A DNA stretch of 64,000 nucleotides, taken from the NCBI GenBank assembly GCA_964447495.1, contig CAYUTF010000002.1, positions 37,288 through 101,287 on the forward strand. Direction: 5' to 3'. Positions within the stretch are counted from its first letter, which is position 1; every line of letters begins with the position of its first letter. Of this stretch, positions 1-17,196 are shown piece after piece. The stretch is from an uncultured archaeon (GTDB lineage: Archaea; Asgardarchaeota; Lokiarchaeia; Sigyniarchaeales; SOKP01). Below the pieces are notes generated by a model, which worked only from the letters and a program-made list of their open reading frames with translations, made no database searches and was not told the DNA's origin. Position numbers and translations under genes: made by a program.

Positions 1-678
1 CAGAACCAATGATTTAAATGGTTCTAATTGAATGAGACTGTTTCTTTCATGATTAAGGCTTATTAATTTAATGGTATTGACAAAGCTTTTTTTGGTGTTT
101 TCACCAGTTATTATATTCTTCGGTGAACCATGTATTTTATAAATAGGTGCTTTTCCACTTTTTATTAACTTCTCAGGATCCGAGTATTTATTAAAATCTT
201 TTTCTGTGATTACAGGAATTATTTTTTTCTTTGGTAATTCTGATTTTAATAACGCTTGTTCGATTAGATTATCAAAATTAGTAGTTATAACATAATTACC
301 TTTCTTAAGCATTTCTGATAGAAAGAAATGAACGATATTTGGTTTATCACATTCAAGATAATAATCAACTATGTTTAAATCCTCATCAAGTATTTCACGT
401 ATTATCTCTAAAAGAACCTCAAATTTTAAATTCTCTATTTTTAATATATTATCAACTTCTGATTTTAAATTCTCTATTTTTAATATGTTATCAACTTCTG
501 AAGGAGAACATACATATTTAATTAATTCCTTCATCATATCACGAGCAATAGGTAATCTTGAAGGGGACTTAACTGAAATTCCTGCTCCTACGAGAAAAGT
601 GAGCCCTTGAGATTCATTTAATAATTGAGTAATATCTAAATCAGAAGGTTTTTTAATTGAACTCAAATAAATTCGCAC
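1..678 (-). CDS. SIR2-like (SIR2_2) domain protein, 3' end runs off the window
   Basis: Missing from the ORF track because no stop lies in the window. Hand translation from GTG at 678 gives MRIYLSSIKKP..TFLVGAGISVKSPSRLP..VITTNFDNLIE..IYKIHGSP, open to base 1. GAGxS, TTNFD and KxHGS are SIR2_2 motifs. Confidence 0.8.
   Translation of the reverse strand, partial: MRIYLSSIKKPSDLDITQLLNESQGLTFLVGAGISVKSPSRLPIARDMMKELIKYVCSPSEVDNILKIENLKSEVDNILKIENLKFEVLLEIIREILDEDLNIVDYYLECDKPNIVHFFLSEMLKKGNYVITTNFDNLIEQALLKSELPKKKIIPVITEKDFNKYSDPEKLIKSGKAPIYKIHGSPKNIITGENTKKSFVNTIKLISLNHERNSLIQLEPFKSLVL
423..500. repeat. 39-bp direct tandem duplication (2 copies, 1 mismatch) inside the SIR2-like CDS
   Basis: attttaaattctctatttttaatat(a/g)ttatcaacttctg starts at 423 and again at 462. 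It encodes SEVDNILKIENLK twice on the minus strand. Confidence 0.9.
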
Positions 679-792
679 CCTTAAAAATTATGTATTTAGA
701 TAAGAAGAGGATTTATTACTAATCTTAAATAATTTTGGTTTATAATTACAAAAAAGTTTGTTATAATAAATATCAGATCATAGGTTCTATTC

Positions 793-1611
793 CTAAAAAC
801 TGAAAAATAATTCAATTTCTTTTGTAATTTTAATGATATCTTCTACACTATACGGATCATGATCCATATTCTTAATGACAACTAATTCAAGATTAGGCAG
901 GTGATTTAGGATTTTTGCTCTTAATTCTGATAAATTTATTAACTTATCCTTATCACCCAAAATTATTTTTAAGTTTTTATAAGAGATATTACTTAAATTC
1001 TTTTCAATTTGAAATTCGTCCATGGTTAATTCCAATTTCACTTTTGAAATGAAATCTTCGACATTTTCAATACCATGAACGTTCCCTGGGAGAAATCGAT
1101 TTATATAATATAAGTTTCTCGCAAAATCGTTATTTAATACGATCTTTTCTATATTAAGGGTGGGGGATAATAGCAGAAGTTTGTTTATATAATCGGTCTG
1201 TGAGCATAATATTAGCGCGATGTAAGCCCCGAAATCATAAGCAAGAACGTTTAGTTCCGTATTATCGAAAATTAAATTTTGTTGCATGATTTTTACAAAC
1301 TCAATAACTTTTATAGCGTCTGAAACCTGATTATTAAGTGAAATTACTCCTTCACTATCTCTATACCCCCTAAAATTAAAAACTAAAAATGCATATCCAG
1401 AATCAAGAAGAAATTTATATGTCTTAACTATTTCGCTCAAAGTAAAGATTTGAGGAAATCCGGGGAAAAATATTATCAAAGGATAAGGCTTTTGATATAT
1501 CTCTGGAGGAAAGTAAAGGAGTCCACGAAAAATCTGCTCTTCGTTATGAATTTCAACAACTGACACTTCATAAGGACCATCAAATTGTTTTTCTTTAAAT
1601 TCCATGATCAT
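793..1611 (-). CDS. alpha/beta-fold hydrolase
   Basis: FPGFP oxyanion-type motif, FNFRGYRDSEG, nucleophile elbow A-Y-D-F-G, acid GDKD, and His in NMDHD. Confidence 0.75.
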   Translation of the reverse strand: MIMEFKEKQFDGPYEVSVVEIHNEEQIFRGLLYFPPEIYQKPYPLIIFFPGFPQIFTLSEIVKTYKFLLDSGYAFLVFNFRGYRDSEGVISLNNQVSDAIKVIEFVKIMQQNLIFDNTELNVLAYDFGAYIALILCSQTDYINKLLLLSPTLNIEKIVLNNDFARNLYYINRFLPGNVHGIENVEDFISKVKLELTMDEFQIEKNLSNISYKNLKIILGDKDKLINLSELRAKILNHLPNLELVVIKNMDHDPYSVEDIIKITKEIELFFSF

Positions 1612-1702
1612 TTTAATCTTATTTGATAAACAGATAACTTATTCTTTATTTATTAATTAGTTAAAAGTAAAGAAAAATTCATCATTTTTAAAGGGATAAA
1701 GT

Positions 1703-2566
1703 ATGAAATTCGAAGATTATCATACACATAATTCATTATGTCGACATGCGACTGGTACTCTTCAAGATTATCTAAATAAAGCATTAGAATATGATTTGGG
1801 CTTAATTGGCTTCAGTGATCATTTTCCGTATGATTATTTATGTGATTTTGTACCCGAATTTGAAACTATCCCTTACCAAGAATATTCTATGCGGTTATCA
1901 GAAGTTGACGGGTATATCTCTGAGCTAAAAAAGTTAAAAAAGAAACTAAAAGATAGAATTCAGATTAAAATCGGATTTGAACTCGATTATTTCGAAAATC
2001 AGGAAAAAAATACTATTAATGCTCTTAATAGTTATTTAAACGATTTAGATTATATATATGGTTCCGTTCATATATTACCTACTAAAACAGGCTTATTTGC
2101 TTTTGATGATAGTAGGTTTCTGCAGAAATATAATGAATTTGAAAATATAGATGAGATTTATTTGAAATATTATGATACTTTGCAAAAAATGATAAACTCA
2201 ACTACTTTTGTCTGTGATATTATAAGTCATTTTGATCTCCCGAAAAAATTTAATAAGCCATTTATCAATCAAGATTTAATCATGAATAAAGTTTCAGAAA
2301 CGCTTGAATTAGCTAAAAAGAAAAATTTGGTTATCGAAATTAATTCAAGCGGGTTAAGAAAAGAAGTTCACGAGCAATATCCTAGTAAGGAAATCCTTAA
2401 AATAATGTATGAATTAGATATTCCGGTAATATTAGGGTCTGATGCTCATCATCCAGATGAATTAGCATATGAGTTTAAGAGCATAATCACCTTATTAAGA
2501 GAAATTGGATATAATTATCTAGCTCATTTTGATAAAAGAAAGAGAAGCTTTATTGAAATATCATAA
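1703..2566 (+). CDS. hisJ: PHP-family histidinol-phosphatase (HisJ/HisK family)
   Basis: DYHTHNSLCRHA, GFSDHFP, IGFELDY, GSVH, SHFDLPKKF, EINSSGLRK and GSDAHHP motifs. Confidence 0.85.
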   Translation: MKFEDYHTHNSLCRHATGTLQDYLNKALEYDLGLIGFSDHFPYDYLCDFVPEFETIPYQEYSMRLSEVDGYISELKKLKKKLKDRIQIKIGFELDYFENQEKNTINALNSYLNDLDYIYGSVHILPTKTGLFAFDDSRFLQKYNEFENIDEIYLKYYDTLQKMINSTTFVCDIISHFDLPKKFNKPFINQDLIMNKVSETLELAKKKNLVIEINSSGLRKEVHEQYPSKEILKIMYELDIPVILGSDAHHPDELAYEFKSIITLLREIGYNYLAHFDKRKRSFIEIS

Positions 2567-2612
2567 TTTATTAAGAAAGAAATCTAAAATTTAATAACTA
2601 TCAGTAATATGT

Positions 2613-3443
2613 TTATTCAATTTTTCTGGAACGAAGCCATCCTTCCATTACGATACTTTTAAAGAATTTAACGTGTTTTGAGTCTTTTGTATGGATCACT
2701 AAATGATTATCTTCTGAATTTCCGATAACCGCAAATAACAACTCTTCCCCATCTCTATCCATTACGTATCTGTCTTTAGCTTCATACATTCTTATTGATA
2801 TATTATCAAGACTTTCAAATTCTTCTAACAATTCAGCGTCTTCTTCCAATCCTGGATCTATATAACAAGAAATTTTCATATTAACAGAAGACCGCACTTC
2901 ATATAATAACAAGTGTTGAAGATCTTTTATATTGGGTACAGCAATAGTGACATTGTGAAGAGCATTCATTAAAATTTCCTTCATTTTGGTCAATATTTTA
3001 CTTTTTGATATATCAATATTTGTCCAGTCAATAATTTTAGAACCTGAAGCTGCTGCTAATTGATTTCTTATTTTTTCATTTTCATTTTCCAATAATTCTA
3101 AGTCTTCATCCGCTTTTTTTAATTCTCCTTGTAAAATTTCAAGTTTCCCTTGAATATCAGCAATTTCCTTATCCTTCTCTTCAAGTTTAGACTTTTCAAC
3201 TCTCGTATCTAATAAAACTTTAATTTCTTTTCCTTTTAACTCCACCGATTTCTCTAGAGTGCTAATTTTCTCATCTTTAATTTTTAATGAGCTATCTAAT
3301 GTTTCGATTTGCTGACTTTTCAAGTTCATAGAATCTTTAATTGTCTTAATCTGATCTTCTTTAAGATTCATCGCTCGTTGTAAATTAACGATTAAATCAT
3401 CTTTAGTTTTTAGCTGTTCATCTTTAATTTCTTTATCATCCAT
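2613..3443 (-). CDS. Coiled-coil protein with a C-terminal TrmB/PLD-like alpha/beta domain
   Basis: N-terminal 14-aa periodic coiled coil. The C-terminal ~140 aa (VTIAVP..KISCYID..IRMY..RYVMDRDGEELL) resembles a PLD-like fold, by inference. Confidence 0.5.
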   Translation of the reverse strand: MDDKEIKDEQLKTKDDLIVNLQRAMNLKEDQIKTIKDSMNLKSQQIETLDSSLKIKDEKISTLEKSVELKGKEIKVLLDTRVEKSKLEEKDKEIADIQGKLEILQGELKKADEDLELLENENEKIRNQLAAASGSKIIDWTNIDISKSKILTKMKEILMNALHNVTIAVPNIKDLQHLLLYEVRSSVNMKISCYIDPGLEEDAELLEEFESLDNISIRMYEAKDRYVMDRDGEELLFAVIGNSEDNHLVIHTKDSKHVKFFKSIVMEGWLRSRKIE

Positions 3444-3688
3444 GTTTTCATTAACTTTCTTTTCATTGATTCTTTTAATAAATATAAAAAAATTCCTTTT
3501 TAATTGTTAGTTAAATAATATTGTTACTCTAATAAATATTAAAATATTTGAGTAAATTTATAATTTAAATTATAAAACTCATTTAATTATTTTTTATATA
3601 TTTGCTAAAGATTTAATTCTTTTTGCACATTAATAGAACGATTATTATTTAGAATAGTTTTAAATTTGAGTACTGTTATTATAATCTC

Positions 3689-4423
3689 ATGAGCTCAGAA
3701 CCAAATTTTAAAGATTTAGAAAACGATATTACAGAAATTCTCGAAAAAGAGATGAAAGAAAATGCGGGGATTCTTGGAATAACAATTTCTTCTCATGGAG
3801 GTACACACTTAGCTAGTAAATTTAAAAAAGATATCGCTATGAAAAGAACTGAGATTTCAGCAGCAAGTAGTAGTTTAGTATTTTTATCTTCAAAAATGTT
3901 ACAAGATGCATTAAATCAGAAAATTTCCTATAATTTGATTACTGGCAGTAAACGCATTATCCTATCAATCCTGACCGAAAATATAGCAATGATCTCATAT
4001 TTAAATCGAGAAATCGCTGAACTTGAAGGATTGGATACATATATCAACACTTTGAAAAAATTTTCCATGAAACTTTCCGCAATAATTGCAACATCAGATC
4101 TAATTAAAGAAGAGATTTTTGTTGCTATAAAGAGAGCAATTCCAAACGCTCTAGTAATAGCGATAATGACTAAAGATGGACTCCCCATTAAAATTCAATC
4201 AACGATGCCAGAACCGATACTTTCCGCCATGACATCCGCAATATATAATCTATCAAGTGTTTTATTAGAAGGTGGTTTGGAATTCTCAATAATTGGGGGT
4301 GAAAATGGATCTATCATTATCCATGAACTCGACAAAAATCGTATTATAGCAATTGCTGTACCTGAGGCGAATGAAAAAAAACTAGGAAGCTATATTGCTA
4401 AAATAAAAACTATAATCGAATAA
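3689..4423 (+). CDS. Tandem roadblock/LC7 domain protein
   Basis: Two ~120-aa units, GILGITISSHGGTHLAS..AASSSL and NALVIAIMTKDGLPI..SAMTSAI, typical of roadblock domains. Confidence 0.75.
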   Translation: MSSEPNFKDLENDITEILEKEMKENAGILGITISSHGGTHLASKFKKDIAMKRTEISAASSSLVFLSSKMLQDALNQKISYNLITGSKRIILSILTENIAMISYLNREIAELEGLDTYINTLKKFSMKLSAIIATSDLIKEEIFVAIKRAIPNALVIAIMTKDGLPIKIQSTMPEPILSAMTSAIYNLSSVLLEGGLEFSIIGGENGSIIIHELDKNRIIAIAVPEANEKKLGSYIAKIKTIIE

Positions 4424-4429
4424 GATACT

Positions 4430-5683
4430 TTAATTTCTAATTAGCTTTTCAATCTTGTCCACAACCTTTAGAGCACCAAAATAAGATTCTGCAAACGTGG
4501 TTCCATTATATAGTATTGTGCATAAAGGTTCATTCTTATAAATATCAAAATCAGGTGCTGATTTATCATGAACATAAGCCAATTTACTTATTTCATCTAA
4601 TTTGGAGCTTTTTATATCTTGAGAGGCAAATAAAATTAATTTTGTAGAAAAAGTATGGGTTTCAATAGTATCTAATCTCCTTAAGATAGTATTCCATTCA
4701 TCTTCAGAAAAAGATTGAATATGAAGATCCATTAAATTAATATTAAGTGCATTTTCTGACACCCTTAGAGAACCGGGGATTCTAGGATTAATTTCCATCA
4801 AATACGGATAATGATTTTTTAATACAAAATCAAATCCATTTATCCCTTTTAATTTTAATGTTTTAGTTAGAAAAAGAGAGATTTCTGTAATTATTTCATT
4901 ATCTATTTTAAGTAAATTTGCAGGTACAATATTTCCACAATAAGCAAACTGTTTAGGGGCATTTAGAAATTTTTCCCCAATTATTTGACGATTTATAGAG
5001 ATAACTTTAGTATTTACGCCATCAGAAATGATTGTGCAGCTTATAGGTAATCCTTGGATATATTCTTGAACTAACCATTCATTTGGTTGGAAGCCCTCAA
5101 CTCCAAGTAGCTTCATGAGAAAGAGATATTGGTCATATGTATCTATTTTATAAATATTTATACCTCCTGAACTCTTTTTCTTTTTCAAAATTAGCGGATA
5201 TTGTACATTTTGACTCTGAAAATCAAACTCATCAGCACTTATGCTAATAGGGTATTTATAGTTATATTTTTCTAATAAATTATATAATCCGTGTATATCT
5301 CGTGCTTTTTTTAATATTTCGATGTTGTTGTTCAAACTTTTTATGCCATATTTTTTATTCTTCAATTCTTGAAGAAATTGAGCTCTGTCATCAATGGCAT
5401 CATCTAATCCACTTCCAATAACGAGATTCTCTATTTTGGGATGCCTCTCTAACATTTTTAATGCGAATTTTAATAAATACTGACTATAAGAATTTTTTAA
5501 TACTTCATAATTTGCGCCAAGTTCCTTACTAATGATTAATGAATCTTTTACACAGGGAAATAAATCTACATCTCCAAAAAAATCCACAGCATATACCTTA
5601 TAACCCGCTAAATTTAAGGAAGTAGCTAATGGTCTAGTGTTAAAACCAACAACTAGTACAGAATTTTTATAATCACTCATCAA
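4430..5683 (-). CDS. ATP-grasp domain carboligase (COG2232-like)
   Basis: VLVVGFNTRPLA..AVDFFGDVDL, LKKKKSSGG, VQEYIQG, GFDFV and EINPRIPGS. Confidence 0.8.
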   Translation of the reverse strand: MMSDYKNSVLVVGFNTRPLATSLNLAGYKVYAVDFFGDVDLFPCVKDSLIISKELGANYEVLKNSYSQYLLKFALKMLERHPKIENLVIGSGLDDAIDDRAQFLQELKNKKYGIKSLNNNIEILKKARDIHGLYNLLEKYNYKYPISISADEFDFQSQNVQYPLILKKKKSSGGINIYKIDTYDQYLFLMKLLGVEGFQPNEWLVQEYIQGLPISCTIISDGVNTKVISINRQIIGEKFLNAPKQFAYCGNIVPANLLKIDNEIITEISLFLTKTLKLKGINGFDFVLKNHYPYLMEINPRIPGSLRVSENALNINLMDLHIQSFSEDEWNTILRRLDTIETHTFSTKLILFASQDIKSSKLDEISKLAYVHDKSAPDFDIYKNEPLCTILYNGTTFAESYFGALKVVDKIEKLIRN

Positions 5684-5722
5684 TCTAACAAATATTTCAA
5701 AAATTAAAACTTATTTTATATG

Positions 5723-7962
5723 TTAAAGAATCTTTTTTAACTCTAAAATTAGATTTTTGGGATTGACTCTGTCAAATTGATAAATTTCTGCTTTTCCGAA
5801 ATCTTTAAAATTCTCCTTTATCTTATTAGCAGCAAAAGTATTTACACCTAATCCTTGAGTGGCATAACTCTTTTTTGGTTCTAACACTACAAGATGAACC
5901 CCTTTTTTAGATAAAGCCTTTGTTAATTCTTTTAATTCATTGATAATCACATTATAATCACTTTGTACTTGGGCAATTAAATCAGGATATTTTACGGAAA
6001 TGTTTGCACCACAATCAGAACAAATAAAAATTACGGGGATTATATTTCTATTCTTTAATTTTTCTGCATTAATTAATTTAAGAGATTTCTTTAATGCTGC
6101 AGCCATTGGTGTATATGATTTTCCTTCAATATTTTTTACTTTATTGGCAGCATTCTTGAAATAAACCGTTGGTTTTTGAAGAACAACTGCATCTTTTCCT
6201 CGAAAAATTATCAGACTTATTTTGTCCTTCTTTCGATAACCTTCTTTTTGTAAAGATAAAATTACATCTGTCATTTGCTTTATTACATAGTACATCGAAG
6301 CAGAGCTGTCTAATACAAAAAATAAAACCAATGGTGCACGATATTCGTATATTTTGTCCATTAAATCATACTTATTGAATTTAATGGGAAAATCAATATC
6401 AGTTTGATTATATATTGTATTTTTCAAATAATTTCTGATAGTTGCATCTAATGCGATACTTTTGGGGTTATTAATTGGAGTTCGATATGATACGTACCTT
6501 CCTTTTTGTGAGGAAGAAATTTTGATTCTTCTTCCGATTCCTCTTCCACCATAGTTAGAAACTTTCCTTTCTTTTCGAATATTATCCAAAATCGAAGTCA
6601 TTTTTTTTTCCATTTTATAGATTAATGGGAGAGCATCGAAATCATAATCTAAAAAATCAAACAACTCCTCATTAAAGGGAATATCCTTTACTTTCCATCC
6701 TCCAGCCGGTGAAGGACTTCTTTTTTTATTATCATGATATTTTGGTGCCGGTAATTTCTGTTCTTTAGTTTCTGGTACATCAACCTTTTTTGGATCTATT
6801 GATTGCCGTTTAAATTCTTTCTGAGGGGCATCGTCATATTTCAGAGGACCTTCTGTGTCTTTATTCGGTTTATAGGTATTAGTATCTTCATATGCTTTCT
6901 GTATTTTTCCATATACCTCAACAATTTTAGCTTTTATCTCTTCCGGAGTCATCTCATAGTGAAGGGATTGAATACGATGTTCAAAAACTAAATCCATAGC
7001 TACATTCAAATCATCCTCAGCAACCATCTTTCTCCCGTTAAAAGCCGCATGAGCACGGGCACATCTGATAAAGGTAATATCTGCTCTTTGAGAAAAAATA
7101 CCTAATTCATTAACAAGCCTTGATACAAACTCATACACAGTAGAAGGAATTTGAACTTCTTTCATAATTTCACGAGCATTTTTTATTTTTTTCCTTAGCA
7201 TTTCCTGTTCTTCTTCATATAATTTATGAAATTCTTTTGGATTATCATCAAATTCTATAACTCGTCTTGAAATTTCTGCTCGTAATTTCGGATCACGAGG
7301 TGCTTTGATTTTAACTTCCAAACCTAGTCTGTCAGCTATCTGTGGGCGGAGTTCCCCCTTTCCGAATCCTAATTCGCTGTGAATATAGGATCTTCGGGGT
7401 TCATACTCCCGACCAAGATAAATCGCGAGGGATGAGATACAGAGATTCCTTCTCGTTCTATTATGTTAACACCTGATGCCGCTGAATCCAATAAAACATC
7501 TACGATGTGATCTTGTAATAGATTTATCTCATCTACGTAAAGAATTCCTCTGTGAGCTTTGGCAAGCAATCCAGGATGAAGACTGCGTATACCTTCTGTA
7601 AGTACTTTATCAATAGACAAAGATCCGCAGACCATATCTTCCGTAACTCCTAAAGGTAAGTCAATTATGCGCATGCTACGCCTTGCCCTTTCCATTGTTC
7701 CATCCTTAAGTTTAACACGACATTCATCACATAATTCATCAATTTCTGCGTTTGGATCACACGAAAACGTACAATCTTTCACCACTTCTATTTCAGGCAT
7801 CATTTCTGCCAAGCTTCTAACAGCCGTAGATTTTCCTGTTCCTTGTTGCCCAGTGAGTAATACTCCAGCAATTTGAGGGTCTATAACATTAAGAATTAGA
7901 CCCATTTTCATTATGTCTTGACCGAGTATTGCTGTAAATGGGAAACTATTCCTTTTTACCAT
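5723..7962 (-). CDS. Mg/Co-chelatase ChlD/ChlI-like AAA+ ATPase with C-terminal vWA domain; two exons (7962-7392, 7359-5723), 735 aa when spliced
   Basis: Walker A GQQGTGKS, Walker B LYVDEINLL, and vWA MIDAS DSSAS..T..SD. The two track ORFs join in frame (571+1637=2208 nt) and give MNPEEGELRPQIADRLGL when 7360-7391 is removed. Confidence 0.85.
7360..7391 (-). other. Putative 32-nt BHB-type mRNA intron (phase 1)
   Basis: AUCCUAUAUUCACAGCGAAUUAGGAUUCGGAA. Central helix CCGA/UCGG, bulges AG^A and AA^A, intron stems UCCU/AGGA and AUUC/GAAU. Contains an in-frame UAG. Confidence 0.8.
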
Positions 7963-8036
7963 AACTTGATGTTAAAAGTTTCATTTTTATTAAAAATTTC
8001 CCATTATAACAAAGTATTAGAGATATTATTACAAAG

Positions 8037-8432
8037 TTAGCAATTTGAATAATATTGCTTGAAGAATTTTATGATAGATAATGCTTCATAACCTTTTTTT
8101 GTTAATTCATACTTCCAAGAAATGTTTTTTTTATCAATTTTTATATAATATTCAGGGTAATCATTTCTATTAAAAAAACTGACTATCGTTCTCGGATTTT
8201 TAATATGTAGAGCATTGGCTAAGGCCTTGCTAGTTATTGATTCACCTGATTTGGACATTTTATAAATAGTTTTTAAATATTTAACAAAATTATCACTTAA
8301 TCTTTTAGGTAGTTTTAAGGGATCTTGAATTAAATTACTCTTATTTACAAATTTAAAATTTTTTTTCACCATATTTTTTTTTAAAGCTTCCCTTTGCTGA
8401 TTAAAAAGTTTTCCATTTAATAAGAGTTTCAT
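8037..8432 (-). CDS. Basic hypothetical protein with possible winged-helix C-terminus; may be a gene remnant
   Basis: ITSKALANALHIKNPRTIVSFF..WKYELTKKGYEAL is wHTH-like. The frame continues upstream to a TAA at 8478-8480. Confidence 0.45.
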   Translation of the reverse strand: MKLLLNGKLFNQQREALKKNMVKKNFKFVNKSNLIQDPLKLPKRLSDNFVKYLKTIYKMSKSGESITSKALANALHIKNPRTIVSFFNRNDYPEYYIKIDKKNISWKYELTKKGYEALSIIKFFKQYYSNC

Positions 8433-8509
8433 AGATTCCAGACCTTTACCCTCCGAATTTAATTTCCATTTTTTCGATTATTGTCTTAATTCTATAGTAT
8501 ACTTTCTTC

Positions 8510-8782
8510 TTATATAAGTAATTTCTTTAAATTATTATAAAATGCATCTGCTTCATGGAAGGCATCTTTAAAAGCCTTATTTCGCTTGTATGCTAATGCT
8601 TTCTCTATTTTAGAAGGTAATGATTCCACTTCTGCTCGATCACCAGTTAAAAATAGCCATCGTCCAAAAGTGTCAAACGATTGAGCGAACGTTCGTATTA
8701 CATCGAAAGGGATAGGAACGTCTTTCGCACGAGAAGTCTGAATGAAACTAGCAATCATGCTTCTTAAGCTCCACATCACCAT
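8510..8782 (-). CDS. Hypothetical protein
   Basis: 90-aa ORF with no recognised motif. Confidence 0.35.
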   Translation of the reverse strand: MVMWSLRSMIASFIQTSRAKDVPIPFDVIRTFAQSFDTFGRWLFLTGDRAEVESLPSKIEKALAYKRNKAFKDAFHEADAFYNNLKKLLI

Positions 8783-8864
8783 TGCGCCCCCTAAATTTTT
8801 ATTAAAAGTAGGATGGAATAGGAAAAATAAGTAGTTCTATAAACTGGTTTTGATTGTAAGAATG

Positions 8865-9044
8865 CTATGTGGGAAAAGTATCTTCGTGGAATTCATCTTC
8901 ATTTTCACCCATTTTCTCATCTTCATCATTTTTTTTATTCCAGTCCTTGTCTTCTTCTTCTGTATTGTCTTCCTCGCGATTTATACTCCTCTCATTCCAT
9001 TCATCAGTTTTAATTTTTCTTTTACCTTTATTTTTTTTCTTCAT
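8865..9044 (-). CDS. Small charged protein, 59 aa (basic N-terminus, acidic remainder)
   Basis: Hand translation: MKKKNKGKRKIKTDEWNERSINREEDNTEEEDKDWNKKNDEDEKMGENEDEFHEDTFPT. This explains the Ser/Phe-rich plus-strand shadow ORFs. Confidence 0.45.
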   Translation of the reverse strand: MKKKNKGKRKIKTDEWNERSINREEDNTEEEDKDWNKKNDEDEKMGENEDEFHEDTFPT

Positions 9045-9326
9045 GATAATATTATCTATTAAGCATTTTTTCCAGTATGTATTTCAAATTTCAATTCATA
9101 ATTTTAAATATTAGCGTTTTAAATTATAAAATCTCTAAAAATATTAATTACTCTTATTTAAAGAATGTTGTTCATATGATTTTATTTATTTTTATCTTAA
9201 CACTTAATAAAGGCAATAGATCATTCAATTCAAAATGCAAACCAATCTAAGAATTCAAACCTATAAACAAATAATTAATAGTAAGAAATGAAACGTTAAA
9301 AAAAAAGCATTTCGATAAGCTATTTT

Positions 9327-10277
9327 TTAGAATTTTTTAGAAATTTCCATTAATTTTGTGTCTAATTTGGTTACTTCTTCATCCCATTCGGATAAAATAG
9401 CCTCCACTTGGGGAATAATCTCTGTTCTTTCTTTATATTCAAGATAATCCATGAATTCTTTGATATTGGCAATTTTTATATAGGTTTCTGCTACAAACTT
9501 TCTAATTTCATGAACTTGATTATTTAATACCTCTGGGACTCTGTGAGATTCGCCTTTTCGAACTAATGTTGTCAAATATTCTTCAGTACCAAGTAATAAA
9601 GCTTTAAATTTAGTCAATTTATCTTGTATATATTTCTCGTATGTTTCAAAGAGATTGTCCTTAGGGAAGTAATTTGTCACATCAATTATGAATTTATGAG
9701 TTTGATTTACCAGTTGCTCCATACTTTCGTATCCTTCGATGCGGTAATCTACAGTATGATAAGATGCTTCAATTCCTCGAGATGTATCATCTAAGCTGAA
9801 TATTTTAAAGCCTGGATCATTTTTAAGAGGTTTTTCTGGATCTCCTTTCTTATCAGGCATTTCTACTTGACGAATTAACCTTTCAGGGTTAAAAACGAGA
9901 GTGAAATACAAAGGATTGGCCGTTTGATGAAAAGCAAGATGTCTAATATCAATATGACTTAACATCACTTTAAATCCGGGATGTGTATGCCACGCTCCAA
10001 CTGTGTATAAGCCCCTTGAAAATGCTTCATCATCAATTAAAGTATATGTAATGTTATCTTCTTCTGACCATTCATATTTATCTATAACAGCATCTTTATC
10101 CAATTTTTCATGCATAATAGGATAAGATTCTTTTATAATGATATCCTCTTCTTTTTTCTCACCAATAAAAACACCATTTACTTCTAACCACACATCTTTT
10201 GAGATTTTTTGATTGGCAAATCGTACAGCTGCGGCCACAATCGTTAGATAAACTTTTTTTGGTATAATTACCGTCAT
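9327..10277 (-). CDS. JAB1/MPN+ (JAMM) metalloprotease-domain protein
   Basis: LEVNGVFIG (catalytic Glu) and GAWHTHPGFKVMLSHID (H-x-H..S..D). Confidence 0.85.
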   Translation of the reverse strand: MTVIIPKKVYLTIVAAAVRFANQKISKDVWLEVNGVFIGEKKEEDIIIKESYPIMHEKLDKDAVIDKYEWSEEDNITYTLIDDEAFSRGLYTVGAWHTHPGFKVMLSHIDIRHLAFHQTANPLYFTLVFNPERLIRQVEMPDKKGDPEKPLKNDPGFKIFSLDDTSRGIEASYHTVDYRIEGYESMEQLVNQTHKFIIDVTNYFPKDNLFETYEKYIQDKLTKFKALLLGTEEYLTTLVRKGESHRVPEVLNNQVHEIRKFVAETYIKIANIKEFMDYLEYKERTEIIPQVEAILSEWDEEVTKLDTKLMEISKKF

Positions 10278-10453
10278 ATTTACATTGTCTAAATACTAAT
10301 ATTATTGATCAAGTTATACTAATCCATATATTTATGTTTTTTTTTGGGAGAAATATAAAATTATTTAAATTCAAAATTTACCATTATATTATTACTTAAA
10401 GTCATATTGAAACTGATTCCAATTAAATAATATTGATTAAATTGTGATTAAAA

Positions 10454-11074
10454 GTGAGCGATAAAGGGTTTGAACCATTAAGCAGTCAGTTAGGGATAGC
10501 AGGAACGTCTTATAGAATTCAATTGGGTCTTATAAATGGACGTTGGGCTTCGCGTTTATTAAAAGGGAATGATGTTATTGATTCTTATGTTTATAAGGAC
10601 GAGGATGTGCAAGGCGAATATCCGAATCAAAATATCATAGTAGGATGGGTCTTAAGAACCGTAGCAATTCCTAATATCAACCCCCATCAAGTAATGAAAA
10701 CAACTCAAGCATTAGTGAAGCAAGCTATAGAAAAGAAAGAACAAAAGAAAGTTATGGCCCCAATATCAGAAACCAAGGATGTTGAATTGGAAAAGGTACC
10801 CGATAGTCAATTGAAGAGATCACAACCCATGGGATGGGTGAAAGATGAAGGTGTAAAATCAGTACAAGAGCTTGAGGACGAAAAACGTGAAGCTTTTAGA
10901 GAAAGGATGAAATACAAACATGTAGAAGAAGAAGCCAAAAGAGTTTCTGCTGTAAAAACTACTCGAGAATTACCTTCAATCCCTAAAATGGGAGGAGTAA
11001 CTTCAAAAACTTGTCCAAGTTGTGGCAAAGATTTAGATTGGAAATTTTGCCCCTATTGTGGGGAAAAATTATAA
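10454..11074 (+). CDS. Zinc-ribbon domain protein
   Basis: C-terminal CPSCG..WKFCPYCG double CxxC; charged linker. Confidence 0.7.
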   Translation: MSDKGFEPLSSQLGIAGTSYRIQLGLINGRWASRLLKGNDVIDSYVYKDEDVQGEYPNQNIIVGWVLRTVAIPNINPHQVMKTTQALVKQAIEKKEQKKVMAPISETKDVELEKVPDSQLKRSQPMGWVKDEGVKSVQELEDEKREAFRERMKYKHVEEEAKRVSAVKTTRELPSIPKMGGVTSKTCPSCGKDLDWKFCPYCGEKL

Positions 11075-11479
11075 ATCTTATCACTATAACTTGATATCTA
11101 CGTTTCTATATAACAGAAAATTAGTTAAATATTAAATTTTATACTCTTTTCTTACAAAAGAAATTTATCCTTGTTTGCCAAATAGATATTGTAGTTTCTG
11201 GTTAAGAGCTTTAACAAGTTAGATTCCATAATTGTAATAAGCATTATATCTGTAAGGTTCCAATTAATAGACATCAAAGTAGATTCTAAAAAATTATTAT
11301 AACTGAATTATTAGTAACAATAATTCAGTTCAATATTATCTTTAATTAATATAAACTTAAAACCAAGATGATATAATTATCATAGAAGGATTTTTGATTA
11401 GTGTATCAAATTAAAATGCATATTATAAATGAGTTAAATTAATATATCTTAAAAATTAACTATATCTAAACTTATCAAA

Positions 11480-12985
11480 TTGAGTGATTTAATAATGGGA
11501 AAGTTTGTTGATGAAAGCACTGTGATAGTTAAGCCATTAGCATATTATAAGATGCTGGTACATGTACTTCGATTTGGTTCAAAAGCAAGGGATTTTAGGC
11601 AGTTTAGCGAAGTAATTGGAATGTTGGTGGGACATTTAGAAGGAGATGGAAAAATCAAAAATGTTATCGTGGAAGATGTAGTACCAATTTCACATGGGGG
11701 TTCTATAGAAGTCAAATTTACTGAAGAACAGTTAGGAGCATTCGGTGAGATTGATCTTCAGATATATAATGAGCATGGTATGAAAAATTGGTTCACAGTA
11801 GGTTGGTATCATTCGCATCCGGGCTTAAATATCTTTTTCTCATCAACTGATGTTTTTAATCAACTATTTTGGCAAGATAAAAATCCTAGTGGAGTAGGAC
11901 TGGTATTCGATCATACATATTTAGAGCGTGAAGGAGACATGGGTTTTCGAGCGTTTAGGTTGGATGATCCTTCGAAAAGTCTTAATTCTGAGTATCATGA
12001 AGTTAAAGCTATTGTAGAACCTCCAAAGGATAAGTCATTCTATTCTAATGTAATCACTTTAATTAATAATATTCAATCAAATCAGCCACCTTTATATGAG
12101 CTAAATGAAACTACAGATCTATTTAGTGAAGTATTTATCCCAGATCAAGAACAATTAGAGATTCGAAAACCTGAATTACATCTTCAGGAATTACTATCTT
12201 CATTAAAATCCGGTATAACTTCCTTTTTAGATTTATCAATGATCCCTCTAATTACGTCTCTTAATGAATGGAGTCAAAGGATTACCAACAAAACATATTA
12301 TAATAACACACAGATGAGAAAAGATTTGGTAAAGTTAAAACAAAATTTAAGTGATAGTCTAAATGATATGCAGAAAACTTTTAATTACACTTTGCAAAAT
12401 AATTTAAGCAAATTAGATGACTACATCTCAGATACATTTGATGAATTTGAAGAGGAACAAGAAAATATTCGGAAAATTTATAGTAATTTTAAAAATCAAA
12501 TCAATTTAGAAAAAGACACTTTATTTAATGAAAAATTAAAGTTTTCTGTTGAACAGATTTCTTTCATGTTTGATAATTGTCAGAAATTAATCTCACAAAT
12601 TGATGAGACTAATTCAAATTGTATCCAAATTTTAGAAAAAAATACTCAAATGATAGAAAGTTTATCGAAAATAATAATGCCCTCAGAAAAAAGAATTACT
12701 GGTAAATTGGATGAAAATAAGCAAAAAACTATAGAAAATTTCAAGAAAAAAATAATAAATCTCGACAATAATATAAGTAATTTAGATAAAGAAGCAAAGA
12801 AAATTATGTCGAACCTCAAGGCAGCTATTTTAGTACTTGAAGGCTCAAAAGACCCTATTTTCAATAAGATTGAAAAATTAGAAAGTGAAAAGAAGAATTT
12901 ACATACAACAATTAAGGACTTAAAAACCGATAAACAAGAACTACTGTCTCAAATTAAAGATTTAAAGAAAGGAGGAGGGAAATAA
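11480..12985 (+). CDS. JAB1/MPN+ domain protein with long C-terminal coiled coil
   Basis: SEVIGMLVG and GWYHSHPGLNIFFSSTD; heptad-rich C-terminal half. Confidence 0.85.
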   Translation: MSDLIMGKFVDESTVIVKPLAYYKMLVHVLRFGSKARDFRQFSEVIGMLVGHLEGDGKIKNVIVEDVVPISHGGSIEVKFTEEQLGAFGEIDLQIYNEHGMKNWFTVGWYHSHPGLNIFFSSTDVFNQLFWQDKNPSGVGLVFDHTYLEREGDMGFRAFRLDDPSKSLNSEYHEVKAIVEPPKDKSFYSNVITLINNIQSNQPPLYELNETTDLFSEVFIPDQEQLEIRKPELHLQELLSSLKSGITSFLDLSMIPLITSLNEWSQRITNKTYYNNTQMRKDLVKLKQNLSDSLNDMQKTFNYTLQNNLSKLDDYISDTFDEFEEEQENIRKIYSNFKNQINLEKDTLFNEKLKFSVEQISFMFDNCQKLISQIDETNSNCIQILEKNTQMIESLSKIIMPSEKRITGKLDENKQKTIENFKKKIINLDNNISNLDKEAKKIMSNLKAAILVLEGSKDPIFNKIEKLESEKKNLHTTIKDLKTDKQELLSQIKDLKKGGGK

Positions 12986-14389
12986 ATGCCTAAAGATTCT
13001 GCTAATAACTTAGATACTGGCTATGAAAATAAAGAAGTAGAAGTCTCAAAAGAGGGAAGAATTACAATTAAATATGATTGTTTTAGAAAGATGATATCTC
13101 ATATTCTTAGATTTGCTAATGAATCTGAAGAAATAAGCCAGCAAGCACTTGGTATTTGTGTTGGCGAATATTTAAGTGAAGATAAGAGTTTCATTATCAA
13201 CGATGCTATTCCAATTACGCATGGTGATATTGTAGAACTGGGATTTTCCCAAGAAATTCATGATACTATAGAAACAATTAAATCGCAATATTCAGAAACA
13301 AACAATAAAATAATAGGGTGGTATCACTCCCATTTAGGATATGGGTTATACTTTTCTAATTCGGATAAAGCAAATAATCAATACTTCCAAAATGACGATA
13401 ATCCTTATGGATTTGGGATTGTGATTGAACAAACATTAATATCAGAGGATCAAAATTTTGGAACTGAAATTTTTAGGTTAAAAGATTTTATTAAAGGCTC
13501 AGAAAGCGATTATGTTAAAGTTCAATTTGAAATTGAATCACCAAATACTTTAAAATACTTTAAATGGGTAAAGGAACTAATTGAATCTGCTCAAAAAAAA
13601 AATACTGCAATCATTCATGAAGTTGATGAGCTCGTGAAACCTTCTCCTGAAGTACTTCAAGAGATCCCCACATCTCCACAAGATGAGCCTGAATCCACAG
13701 AAAAAGAAGGGTTTTCAATACTATATGGAGTAAAAGATGGTATAGAAAAATTTAAGGATGCTTTTCTTAGTGTTTATGAACAAGAACTGAATATATGGAT
13801 GAATGATGTTTCTGAAGATGTATTAAAAGGCTCTGAATATATACGGAGTTCTATAAATAATATTAAAGAAACATTAGCATCAGGTTTAGTGGATGTTCAA
13901 CGCATCTTTAATAGAAGTTTTACCGATATTTCAAATCTTTTTATGAAAAATATAAAAACAAGTGTTGACACACGTTTAACCAATCAAATTGAGCTTAAAA
14001 ATGAAATCGAATCAAACTTTGAAGAGCAATTAAGTTATCTTTTTGAGAATTTAGAAAAAGAAATACGTGATATCACGAATTTAATTGAAGAAAAAATAAC
14101 AACTATTAAAAATGAATTAGATAAGATCACCCAAAATAATAACGTTATTGAACAGTCATTAAATCAGAATAACGAACTTTTGAATAAAGTTTATCAAGAG
14201 TCCGATAAATTATCAAATACAATTATTCAACATATCGAAAATTCGACTAAAGCATTTGAATTAAAATTATTTAATGAAATCGAAGATTTCTCATCGAAAA
14301 TGAATCCAAATAAAGAAACTTATCGTGAAATCGAAGATTTAATTGAAAGACTTCAAAAAGTAATATCAAGTTTAAGACAAGTAAAATAA
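12986..14389 (+). CDS. JAB1/MPN domain protein with coiled coil, catalytic Glu replaced by Gln
   Basis: QQALGICVG at the E-V-x-G position and GWYHSHLGYGLYFSNSD. Starts directly after the previous stop (TAAATG). Confidence 0.8.
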   Translation: MPKDSANNLDTGYENKEVEVSKEGRITIKYDCFRKMISHILRFANESEEISQQALGICVGEYLSEDKSFIINDAIPITHGDIVELGFSQEIHDTIETIKSQYSETNNKIIGWYHSHLGYGLYFSNSDKANNQYFQNDDNPYGFGIVIEQTLISEDQNFGTEIFRLKDFIKGSESDYVKVQFEIESPNTLKYFKWVKELIESAQKKNTAIIHEVDELVKPSPEVLQEIPTSPQDEPESTEKEGFSILYGVKDGIEKFKDAFLSVYEQELNIWMNDVSEDVLKGSEYIRSSINNIKETLASGLVDVQRIFNRSFTDISNLFMKNIKTSVDTRLTNQIELKNEIESNFEEQLSYLFENLEKEIRDITNLIEEKITTIKNELDKITQNNNVIEQSLNQNNELLNKVYQESDKLSNTIIQHIENSTKAFELKLFNEIEDFSSKMNPNKETYREIEDLIERLQKVISSLRQVK

Positions 14390-14428
14390 ACAAAGCTTTT
14401 TTTATATAAAAAGTACTTTTCCTGTAAA

Positions 14429-14743
14429 TTAAGAAAAATCCAGATGAGAAACCATAGAGATATGTAATTTATATTTGGGAATATTAGTTCTTAAGCGTTT
14501 TAATTGATTTCTTTTTGCTACATTACTTAAAATTCGTCCAATTCGATCAACCCTTATATTAATACCGAAGTTTTCTTTTAATACAGAATTAATCTTATAA
14601 GAAGAAAGAATTACCACATTAGATATATTTTTTTCACAAAGCATTTCAATAGCTTGTTTAACAAAATGAACAATATTCTCTCTATCTTGATTTGTTTCCA
14701 TACTCATATTAATAATATTTTTTAAAGTTTTTAAAACTTTCAA
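14429..14743 (-). CDS. Small hypothetical protein, possibly winged-helix
   Basis: 104-aa basic ORF; the true start may be a downstream Met (MSMETNQ). Confidence 0.5.
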   Translation of the reverse strand: MKVLKTLKNIINMSMETNQDRENIVHFVKQAIEMLCEKNISNVVILSSYKINSVLKENFGINIRVDRIGRILSNVAKRNQLKRLRTNIPKYKLHISMVSHLDFS

Positions 14744-14874
14744 ATGAGTAGTTAAATACGAATAATAGTGAGTAAAATTATTTTATATCACTTATTTACT
14801 AATTTATTTAAGAAAAAATTCATTTATAATAAGTCAAAGAATTGAATAAAATTAGTGTTGCTTGGATCTAACAA

Positions 14875-17196
14875 ATGAAAAAAATCAATTTATTATCAAA
14901 AATAAAAGGTTATTTAAAGCCAATCATCAAGAAAATTATTTTTAAGGAGATTTATATTGAGGGCAAAGAACCCCCTAAGTCATTTGCATTTGAGAAACGT
15001 TTTATAGGTATTTATTCGATATTTTTATTCTATTCATTCATCTTATTATTTGCAATTAATTTTCCAGATAATGTCATAATTTATATCGTGACTTTTGGGA
15101 ACCCCTTTGTGTTTGGAAATGCTATTGTGGCATTATTTTTATGCCTCTCAGTACTCTTCAGTAATGATAAAATAAGACACTTTATTTTCGAAGAACATAC
15201 TATGATCAAGCAGATAATTTTATATATTGGATTAACAACTGCGTTTTATTTCATATTTTTATCTCTAATAAATATAAATTTGATGAGTTATCTTCTTGGG
15301 TTATCTACGTTCTGGCTTATATTATTAAGTATTCGATTTTTTATGTATTCTCGCAAATTTGCTACTAAAATAGAAGCGCGTTTTATAGAAAAATATTCAC
15401 TAATGAGAAGGATAGGCGCATTTTTAACACCATATTTTATCTTAGCTCTTTTAGTTTTAATAGCTTTGATGTATCGAGGATTATTAGTCTTTATATCATT
15501 GGATATGTTTGGATCTTATGACCCTACTAGTGCTGTAAACGTATATAACATAGAAATGCGATTAATAATGCCTTTAATTTATTTTAGTTTAATACTTACT
15601 TTACTCTTTATTATTTTTGAATTTGTTTTTACTCGAAAAAAGGCTGAAACTAAAAGGGCAGGCTTATATGATAACTACACATTTTCTCTAATTGTATTAT
15701 TTATCTTTTTCTTTCAGGTTCTACAAGTCACAATTTTTCTTTTATTGAGTCCAGAAACGATATCTACTATAAAGGCCACTGTTAGTTCAACTGGTTCACC
15801 TGTTACTTATATCTTTATATTTGAATTCTTTATTTCAATGTTCTTTCTATATCGTATTGTTAAAAAATTAGGAAAATCAATTGGATGGCAATTATTAATC
15901 TTTAAGAGAGATGGGTTAATTATATTAATTTTAGGGTGTGTTTTTGCTCAAACTTTGAGCCGTTTTTCCTTACAAACCCAAATTCCAAATCAATCCATTA
16001 CGTTATTAGGAAATTTCTTTATGGCTGATAAGTATGTTGTGTCGATAATAATGATTATCTTTCTTGGGTTAACATTGCTGATATATTATCTAAAACCACA
16101 TGAAACTTCAATGTTTATTAGGCTGCAAAAAGAAACTATAAATAGAGAAGAGGAAAGCTTGGATATTATCTATAAATTAATAAAAAGTGAATATATAAGA
16201 AGAGCAGATGCGTATCCTATCGAAATTCTTGAACGAGAATTGATTAAAGCAACAAAATTACCAAAGAATGAAGTATACTCTTTAATTCAAAAACTTACAG
16301 ATGCAAATATGGACGTTTACTTAACTGAAAAAACAGATGATTACGGAATAAAACAAAAAATTATTGATTTTGTGTCTGTCACAGAAAAATTTGACAGTAA
16401 AGGAGTTGCGCAAAAAAAGGCTAAGAAGTTTCTTTCGCAGAGATTATACAAAACTATGGCAAAAAAAAGTCAAACTCATCTTGCATTAAATAATAATTTA
16501 AAATCAGAGAAAGCATCTGATAAATTTCTAAATTCATTAGCAACAGATTTTACTAAAAAACAAAAAGATGATCAAAAAATAAAGCTGAAACAAAATGAAA
16601 CTGAGATCTCATTTATTAGAAAAGATATTCCTGAATCATTGAAGGAGTCAATATTAAGTATTCTTAAAAAAGAATATACTTATCGTATTGAAAATGAAGA
16701 GAAATACCCTAATTTCCTTTTTACAATCTCAGAAATTGCACCTGAAATTCAATTGGAAACGAGGATTAACCCGGGAGAGCTTTATCCTATTTTAGAAAAT
16801 TTAAATCAAACAGATATTGAATTGAAACTTTTAGATAATCCAGAAGAACCAGAAGATAAGATAATTAGCTTTTTTCCTATAGCAGATGATGATTTAACTT
16901 ATGTCATCTCAAGTTTTAGACCTGAAGAATATAATAAAATTAAAATAGAAGTTATAAAGAACTTTATTAAGTATTTAGGACGAAAACGAGTAAAAGCTAC
17001 CCTATCAAAGATAAAAAAGGAGATATCGAATGATACAGAACAGCAAAAACAATGGAATTTTATATATAGAATTTTATTAGATTATTTCTCTAATTTTGCT
17101 GAGCAAATGGAAAAAGAGAAAAAAGGAGGAGATATTTTAAAGGTTTTTAAGGTATTCCCCTTAAAAGATATTGATATTTTTAGTATTGAACTCTAA
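14875..17196 (+). CDS. Polytopic membrane protein with large soluble C-terminal region
   Basis: About 11-12 hydrophobic segments in the first ~410 aa, followed by a charged helical domain. Confidence 0.7.
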   Translation: MKKINLLSKIKGYLKPIIKKIIFKEIYIEGKEPPKSFAFEKRFIGIYSIFLFYSFILLFAINFPDNVIIYIVTFGNPFVFGNAIVALFLCLSVLFSNDKIRHFIFEEHTMIKQIILYIGLTTAFYFIFLSLININLMSYLLGLSTFWLILLSIRFFMYSRKFATKIEARFIEKYSLMRRIGAFLTPYFILALLVLIALMYRGLLVFISLDMFGSYDPTSAVNVYNIEMRLIMPLIYFSLILTLLFIIFEFVFTRKKAETKRAGLYDNYTFSLIVLFIFFFQVLQVTIFLLLSPETISTIKATVSSTGSPVTYIFIFEFFISMFFLYRIVKKLGKSIGWQLLIFKRDGLIILILGCVFAQTLSRFSLQTQIPNQSITLLGNFFMADKYVVSIIMIIFLGLTLLIYYLKPHETSMFIRLQKETINREEESLDIIYKLIKSEYIRRADAYPIEILERELIKATKLPKNEVYSLIQKLTDANMDVYLTEKTDDYGIKQKIIDFVSVTEKFDSKGVAQKKAKKFLSQRLYKTMAKKSQTHLALNNNLKSEKASDKFLNSLATDFTKKQKDDQKIKLKQNETEISFIRKDIPESLKESILSILKKEYTYRIENEEKYPNFLFTISEIAPEIQLETRINPGELYPILENLNQTDIELKLLDNPEEPEDKIISFFPIADDDLTYVISSFRPEEYNKIKIEVIKNFIKYLGRKRVKATLSKIKKEISNDTEQQKQWNFIYRILLDYFSNFAEQMEKEKKGGDILKVFKVFPLKDIDIFSIEL

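Follow-up and report, generated by a model that had tools for sequence, protein, structure and literature searches.

A cluster of four genes was analyzed in a 64,000-nucleotide window of contig CAYUTF010000002.1 (assembly GCA_964447495.1, positions 37,288 to 101,287, forward strand) from an uncultured archaeon of the Sigyniarchaeales (Asgardarchaeota, Lokiarchaeia). The window has a G+C content of about 30% and the homologues found came from Promethearchaeota (Asgard) metagenome bins. The genes are designated A, Z, B and C. All were recovered by listing of open reading frames (ORFs). Z sits between A and B on the DNA and A runs divergently from Z-B-C. An original prediction, made from the letters of the DNA, had placed three MPN genes here, two of them as a eukaryote-like pair of an active (MPN+) and an inactive (MPN-) protein. 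The three ORFs are present, and A, B and C each score above the Pfam cut-off for the MPN fold (PF01398, JAB).

Gene A (9327-10277, minus strand) encodes 316 amino acids with a complete JAMM motif and a helical tail of about 130 amino acids (PF01398, E 1.3e-9). Gene Z (10454-11074, plus strand) encodes 206 amino acids and is the zinc-ribbon gene that had been predicted next door, with the ribbon at its C-terminus (PF13248, Zn_ribbon_3, E 1.2e-6). Gene B (11495-12985, plus strand) encodes 496 amino acids comprising an MPN+ head, a conserved linker and a helix of about 220 amino acids (PF01398, E 8.4e-14). Its start was moved to the ATG at 11495, which is used by public gene callers; the alternative TTG at 11480 is less likely. 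Gene C (12986-14389, plus strand) encodes 467 amino acids with the same head, linker and stalk as B and a degenerate catalytic site (PF01398, E 2.4e-8). BLASTP aligned B with C in head and tail alike, at 30% identity (393 aligned positions, E 2e-39), so the two are paralogues along their full length.

The Glu of JAMM enzymes is the general base that deprotonates the zinc-bound water, and the spacing of the motif is defined as HxHx7Sx2D (PMC9313428). The motif of B (11609-11851, plus strand) is complete and reads E39...H106-S-H108-x7-S116-x2-D119 when counted from ATG 11495, with E39 at 11609-11611, H106-S-H108 at 11810-11818, S116 at 11840-11842 and D119 at 11849-11851. The site of A is also complete (E32...H97-T-H99...S107..D110). 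The degenerate site of C lies at 13142-13366 (plus strand). It reads S-Q-Q53-A-L-G, and in an alignment with yeast Rpn11 the place of the catalytic Glu is taken by Q53 (CAA, 13142-13144). The two His residues, Ser and Asp are retained as H114-S-H116-x7-S124-x2-D127 (H114-S-H116 at 13325-13333, S124 at 13355-13357, D127 at 13364-13366), giving the signature QHHSD. The predicted exchange of Gln for Glu, with the rest of the motif kept, was thus read correctly.

Catalytic signatures were taken from five alignment columns in 119 homologues each of B and C. The intact signature EHHSD was found in 119/119 orthologues of B and 120/120 orthologues of A. It was found in 30/119 orthologues of C. Among full-length members of C the count was 29/117, so that 88/117 lack at least one of the residues. 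The degenerate states of C among the 119 included 53 Q-HHSD, 19 E-H-R-S-D and 2 A-HHSD, and a dozen more were without the first His, the Asp or both. Of 29 genomes that each represent a species, all had an intact B and 11 an intact C. A single genus (g1) holds five states of C: QHHSD, EHRSD, EHHSD, EVHTD and EIHTD. The pattern is asymmetric, with repeated losses of catalytic residues in C and none in B.

Conservation of the Glu-to-Gln change in orthologues had been proposed as a check on the prediction. It held across the 14 nearest orthologues, and the change also occurs in a second clade. Other orthologues keep Glu and break His or Asp. Orthologues with Glu had been named as a refutation of the prediction, and on that point the outcome is mixed. 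As the change is only one of several ways in which the site is lost, and a quarter of lineages have an intact C, it is not family-wide. The residue before the Gln is variable in the clade of the window (Q, T, I, E) and is Glu or Asp in the second clade (NEQVLG, NDQVLG).

These acidic residues bear on the possibility that C of the window is still active, with Gln53 or a neighboring acidic residue as the general base and the cluster thus encoding two active isopeptidases. The intact zinc ligands and Ser of C would agree with this, as would the fully canonical C of 11/29 species. Against it, position -1 varies in the window's own clade and, on a beta-strand, would face away from the site. A zinc-binding His or the Asp has been lost in other C lineages, so catalysis is clearly dispensable in the C family. 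AMSH-LP with Glu292 replaced by Ala was crystallized bound to K63-linked ubiquitin (PMC9313428). An active C in the window is considered very improbable.

A tree built from 239 homologues had all of the B family in one clade (support 99) and the C family on the other side. When the C-family tree was rooted on B it required at least five switches between intact and degenerate sites, at least four of which are forced by well-supported branches. With the separate states kept apart 11 changes were needed, and the Glu-to-Gln change had at least two origins. The ratio of nonsynonymous to synonymous substitution rates (dN/dS) was estimated by the Nei-Gojobori method on close genome pairs. Values for the head were 0.05-0.14 in B and 0.09-0.26 in C. 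Values for the tail were mostly 0.06-0.4 and reached 0.51 in the most diverged pair. By these estimates relaxation is about twofold greater in C than in B, yet C is clearly under purifying selection. The reading frame of C was whole in 28/28 complete loci. C is, as judged from these sequence comparisons, not a decaying gene; the catalytic site has been lost in about 75% of orthologues and the rest is constrained.

When 201 Asgard genomes were searched in six frames, B orthologues were present in 40/40 members of the GTDB family to which the window belongs (8 genera sampled) and in a single genome from the sister family. The other Asgard genomes gave domain-level MPN matches only. B and C co-occur in every searched genome of the family. 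C lies directly 3' of B on the same strand in 29/30 fetched loci, with a gap of 0-9 nt or an overlap, and the start-stop abutment or overlap is kept across seven genera. In genome G141 C is about 6 kb away from B. In the window the two genes abut as predicted, the TAA of B (12983-12985) standing directly before the ATG of C (12986). The coupling site (12970-12988, plus strand) has AGGAGGAGG, a Shine-Dalgarno-like motif, within the last codons of B, followed by this stop and start.

B and C share a reading frame in 21/29 related loci, with 1-3 codons between them including the stop or stops (for example TAA-ATG and TGA-TTG-TGA). This exceeds the one-third expected by chance, but the genomes are not independent, being related to one another. 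The shared frame could reflect tight coupling alone or occasional read-through of the stop to give a B-C fusion. The B search of a library of 1.84 billion representative proteins returned 456 matches at E ≤ 1e-3 and 52 at E ≤ 1e-30, and by this count the B family is small. No natural B-C fusion of about 950 amino acids was present among the best 150 of the 456 matches.

The other two genes are part of the same arrangement. Z was directly upstream of B in 26/30 loci with 49-77% identity, and was present in 38/40 genomes of the family. A was present in 41/41 family genomes (13 genera), in most cases on the strand opposite to B and 1-3 kb upstream of it. NCBI locus tags were consistent with the order A-Z-B-C (for example ACFFFB_07590, 07600 and 07605). 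A, Z, B and C make up a module that is conserved, chromosomal and specific to the lineage of a single Asgard (Loki-type) family. The universal and fixed arrangement of the cluster points to a housekeeping module and not to a defense island.

Defense islands are patchy in distribution, and this cluster is found, with its synteny kept, in all 41 family genomes. An anti-virus module of the CBASS (cyclic oligonucleotide-based antiphage signaling system) Cap3 type, or of another type that contains JAB, was suggested by weak domain-level JAB/Cap3 matches of A and C (NCBIfam E 0.002, far below the cut-off; PADLOC JAB E 2.5e-7, also below the cut-off). These matches are confined to the shared domain, however, and CD-NTase, E1/E2 (Cap2) fusion and effector genes were absent nearby. 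PADLOC gave domain-level JAB and ZorA-tail-like helical matches only. The defense reading was rejected as extremely improbable.

The structure of the pair was modeled with AlphaFold2 from B and C translated through the single stop, both being in one frame. The alignment had the window pair as its first row, together with 20 in-frame related pairs, 58 C rows and 15 B rows. The read-through model had a mean predicted local distance difference test score (pLDDT) of 72.5 and a predicted template modeling score (pTM) of 0.47. Each half consists of an MPN head of about 195 residues, a low-confidence linker of about 45 residues and one unbroken helix. The predicted helix of the B stalk is continuous over B residues 242-463 by DSSP (12218-12883, plus strand) with pLDDT 70-91. 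That of the C stalk covers C residues 247-464 (13724-14377, plus strand), which are residues 744-961 of the read-through model. In mid-helix the pLDDT rose to as much as 91. A helix of about 220 residues would be about 33 nm long.

The original prediction had described the tails as long coiled coils. The long helix is borne out by the AlphaFold2 model and the heptads are not. The hydrophobic period of both tails was 3.63 residues, with a power of 211 in B and 120 in C compared with shuffled 99th percentiles of 90 and 91, respectively. A classic heptad coiled coil, with a period of 3.5, was rejected for the tails. As 3.63 is nearer to 11/3 than to 3.5, the term coiled coil would here mean a hendecad-type or amphipathic rod.

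Conservation was low in mid-stalk (0.36-0.46, and 0.41-0.5 in C) and high in the heads, the linker and the stalk ends. At the C-terminus of C it was 0.71-0.75, with the motif P.KE...E.E.LIERLQK.I.DFR..K. The distance from HxH to the C-terminus was near constant, at 352-362 residues in C and mostly 383-394 in B. The conserved ends and near-constant length fit a spacer of fixed length with functional ends. The last 30-60 stalk residues, which follow a conserved Pro (14306-14386 in C, 12800-12982 in B), were far more conserved than the mid-stalk. The LIERLQKxIxDFR of C may resemble, in an inexact match, the LxxRLxxL core of the MIT-interacting motifs of ESCRT-III.

The linker between head and stalk (B residues 201-240, 12095-12215; C 13580-13640) had pLDDT below 50 and was predicted to be disordered. 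It was also among the best conserved parts of B, with the consensus PPILELNETxDLFxDxFIP..QL..KKPEL, and residues E202 and E205 of B are invariant in both B and C. The linker is probably a short docking motif.

The heads were compared with proteins of known structure. In phmmer searches of the PDB with B the best match was CsRpn11 (2.3e-9), followed by yeast Rpn11 (1e-8) and then CSN5 and BRCC36 (both about 3e-6). The top Foldseek match was BRCC36 in BRCA1-A (6gvw_B, E 1.1e-9), over 297 columns reaching into the helix. Rpn11, CSN5 and CsRpn11 ranked next by a narrow margin. VIA-align gave the B head a Z of 16.9 to both CsRpn11 (28% identity) and yeast Rpn11 (26%), and gave the C head a Z of about 17 to EMC8, eIF3h, CSN6 and Rpn11-type chains. 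Both model heads had a VIA Z of 16-17 to Rpn11, CsRpn11, CSN5 and BRCC36. Alignments to single chains of BRCC36 and Rpn11 extended from one half of the model into the other (ranges 5..695 and 7..531), a hint that the two heads are in contact in the predicted structure; ranges given as first and last positions are no proof of contact, and the tether biases the model toward it.

MPN folds without catalysis are carried by Prp8, eIF3 and EMC8/9. The module could by analogy be structural, with MPN heads as binding knobs on rods in a scaffold or cytoskeleton-like assembly and with the B site vestigial or only metal-binding. The C head is no closer to Rpn11 than to EMC8, eIF3h and CSN6, the tails are weakly like models of SMC, Rad50, ZorA-tail and apolipoprotein, and the cluster is without ubiquitin genes, all of which would agree with a structural role. 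That role does not account for five catalytic residues that stay unchanged throughout 119 B and 120 A orthologues at identities down to about 40%, nor for a B head dN/dS of 0.05-0.14. Such invariance and low dN/dS are hard to explain without catalysis, and a purely structural module is judged improbable.

A canonical ubiquitin operon of the Asgard kind is present in the same genome, on a contig separate from that of the cluster (contig C62, locus 1285-6600). It encodes three ubiquitin-like proteins, a ThiF-type E1 (411 amino acids), a UBC E2 (178 amino acids) and a JAB protein (277 amino acids). Ubiquitin-like substrates thus exist in this organism, and A-Z-B-C lies outside the operon.

The reading that we favor, with moderate confidence, is that B is an active isopeptidase and C its coupled, degenerate partner within the conserved A-Z-B-C module. 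B would be a catalytically active zinc isopeptidase, eukaryote-like and of the Rpn11/CSN5/BRCC36 type. Its most likely substrates would be conjugates of the organism's own ubiquitin-like proteins. C arose from B by tandem duplication, and the two would be made in step through translational coupling. The two would pair head-to-head and stalk-to-stalk. Only the site of B would be needed in such a pair, so the redundant site of C would be free to break, repeatedly and differently from species to species. The remainder of C, namely its fold, linker motif, stalk length and C-terminal motif, would have been selected as a scaffold or regulatory partner. C of the window has zinc ligands without the general base. 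By comparison with the ubiquitin-bound Ala mutant of AMSH-LP it could, speculatively, bind the tail of ubiquitin and leave it uncut. The sequence data and the model establish paralogy, synteny, coupling, the one-sided conservation of the active site, purifying selection and a predicted architecture of a head on a single helix; the heterodimer, the ubiquitin-like substrate, docking and the parts played by Z and A are inferences. Docking of the pair probably involves the conserved stalk ends and the linker, and as the partners Z and A would be the prime candidates.

For Z this candidacy follows from its conservation and position. From N- to C-terminus the protein consists of a domain of about 100 amino acids, a linear region that is also conserved, a charged linker and the zinc ribbon (CxxC...CxxC). 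The N-terminal domain (residues 1-100, 10454-10760) is nearly invariant across genera. AlphaFold2 predicted residues 10-100 with a pLDDT of about 90 as three beta-hairpin strands and two helices. Foldseek returned no match for this fold at E ≤ 0.001. The best hit of a VIA wide search, at Z 6.8, was to a designed protein and within noise, and the ESM Atlas gave only Z's own zinc-ribbon cluster. Distant relatives of the domain (26-32% identity) open proteins of 300-390 amino acids in other Asgard families.

Several observations weigh against the pairing of an active B with a degenerate C. In 11/29 species C is fully intact and the pair is MPN+/MPN+. The putative B-C complex was modeled solely as a tethered read-through fusion, at a pTM of 0.47. 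A period of 3.63 would also suit an amphipathic helix that binds a surface or membrane, in place of a two-stranded coiled coil. The tail lengths of B and C showed no positive covariation (Spearman -0.57), the lengths being near-constant. Ubiquitin, E1, E2 and E3 genes are absent from the A-Z-B-C cluster. Given this absence, and given that the ubiquitin operon has a JAB gene of its own, the substrate of B is a guess.

B and C may instead be unpaired. Each would then form its own homodimers, or filaments through the stalks, and C would in many species be an independent, non-cutting binder of ubiquitin-like proteins that acts as a reader or competitor. The adjacency of the genes would reflect tandem duplication and shared regulation only. 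CsRpn11 crystallizes as a homodimer (PMC6043591). The lack of positive covariation in tail length, the zinc ligands kept in C of the window's lineage and the distance of about 6 kb between B and C in G141 are also as expected for unpaired proteins. Start-stop abutment or overlap across seven genera is not, and neither is the presence of both genes in every family genome searched. Both stalks have an equal period and nearly fixed lengths. The one-sided decay is what is expected when one site of a pair is redundant. On balance the unpaired alternative is regarded as unlikely.

The active-degenerate pair that we favor corresponds in part to the eukaryote-like MPN+/MPN- pair of the original prediction. 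B and C are adjacent paralogues in 29/30 loci, the site of B is complete in 119/119 orthologues, and that of C is degenerate in about 75% although C is under purifying selection. The closeness of the heads to Rpn11, CsRpn11, CSN5 and BRCC36 also stood. The likeness fails in that C of the window keeps all its zinc ligands. Part of the MPN+/MPN- design is thus seen here, an active and an inactive paralogue being encoded in the same organism. C of the window lacks a catalytic residue, as an MPN- pseudoenzyme does, and has not lost the zinc site.

The closest known design, in having C-terminal helices on both subunits, is BRCC36-Abraxas. Like B and C, BRCC36-Abraxas and BRCC36-ABRO1 (KIAA0157), which form the core of BRCA1-A and BRISC, combine an active MPN+ protein with an inactive MPN paralogue. 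Unlike BRCC36-Abraxas, the stalks of B and C are several times longer, each a single predicted helix of about 220 residues with a period of 3.63, and C of the window's lineage retains its zinc ligands. The sequence search gave no sign of specific orthology between BRCC36 and B, which is nearer in sequence to CsRpn11 and Rpn11; by structure Foldseek put BRCC36 narrowly first. Rpn11-Rpn8 and CSN5-CSN6 are likewise paralogous MPN+/MPN- pairs with one catalytic site. Those pairs belong to PCI complexes and have helical-bundle tails. Among the scanned neighbors of the cluster there was no PCI gene, the genome as a whole having had no search aimed at PCI domains. Rpn8 and CSN6 are without a zinc site altogether; C of the window keeps it, and other C lineages lose His or Asp.

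Among proteins of solved structure, CsRpn11 from Caldiarchaeum subterraneum (PDB 6FJV, 6FNN) has the sequence nearest to that of B. This archaeal JAMM enzyme is eukaryote-like and cleaves ubiquitin. CsRpn11 is a short single-gene enzyme within a ubiquitin operon, whereas B and C are stalked extra paralogues outside such an operon. A gene of the CsRpn11 kind is present in this genome as well, namely the JAB gene for 277 amino acids on contig C62. AMSH and AMSH-LP (STAMBP) resemble B in joining a JAMM isopeptidase to a helical targeting region, and the AMSH-LP Glu-to-Ala structure with K63-linked ubiquitin (PMC9313428) is a model for the Gln of C. AMSH, however, works alone and without a dead partner, and it differs further in its N-terminal MIT domain and in the second zinc of its Ins-2.

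The obligate pairing of an active JAMM isopeptidase with a dead paralogue has been treated as a eukaryotic invention, as in the proteasome lid, the COP9 signalosome (CSN), eIF3 and BRISC. According to a study of archaeal Rpn11 the pairing is not known in archaea, and no description of the B/C pair was found in a full-text literature search. What is new here is an archaeal version of the MPN+/MPN- design. As the duplication of B and C took place inside one archaeal family, it would be independent of the eukaryotic pairs, and the design seems to have arisen independently in Asgard archaea, the closest archaeal relatives of eukaryotes. Unlike the eukaryotic pairs, the B/C family has both-active and one-dead versions among sister species. 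All the intermediate states are found among living species, with both sites intact or with one broken in at least five independent ways. As these intermediates are preserved, the evolution of a pseudoenzyme partner is testable by comparing natural variants. The ubiquitin-related inventory of Asgard archaea also gains a conserved four-gene module, with predicted rods of about 33 nm and with Z, whose N-terminal domain matched no solved fold above noise.

A bolder extension, which we put forward tentatively and think unlikely as a whole, is that A-Z-B-C is an Asgard-specific stalked deubiquitinase machine in which C is a natural substrate trap, its zinc site gripping the tail of ubiquitin with no ability to cut. 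With MPN+/MPN+ pairs still present in sister species and C broken in at least five independent ways in others, the family would show an enzyme/pseudoenzyme pair being born, convergently with the lid, CSN and BRISC pairs. The heads would be held about 33 nm from a docking point that is reached through the C-terminal motifs of both stalks. Docking would be on a membrane or on a partner of the ESCRT/Vps4 type or proteasome type.

The intergenic gap between Z and B (11075-11494) is about 420 nt, AT-rich and unusually long, the corresponding gap being about 140-250 nt in most related loci. Rfam gave no match in the gap and no RNA element in 8000-15000. The neighbors of the cluster encode a zinc-ribbon protein, a winged helix-turn-helix (wHTH) protein, an AAA-vWA chelatase-like protein, a membrane protein and a major facilitator superfamily (MFS) transporter. 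Just downstream of C, 14875-17196 encodes a polytopic membrane protein of 773 amino acids without a Pfam match. A fifth MPN paralogue of 518 amino acids was located in the same genome (contig C3, locus 2424-4611). It has an MPN head followed by tetratricopeptide repeat (TPR)/SNAP-like repeats, and lies directly after the gene for a TPR protein of 174 amino acids. MPN proteins of this size class, about 510-590 amino acids, recur in every genome of the family.

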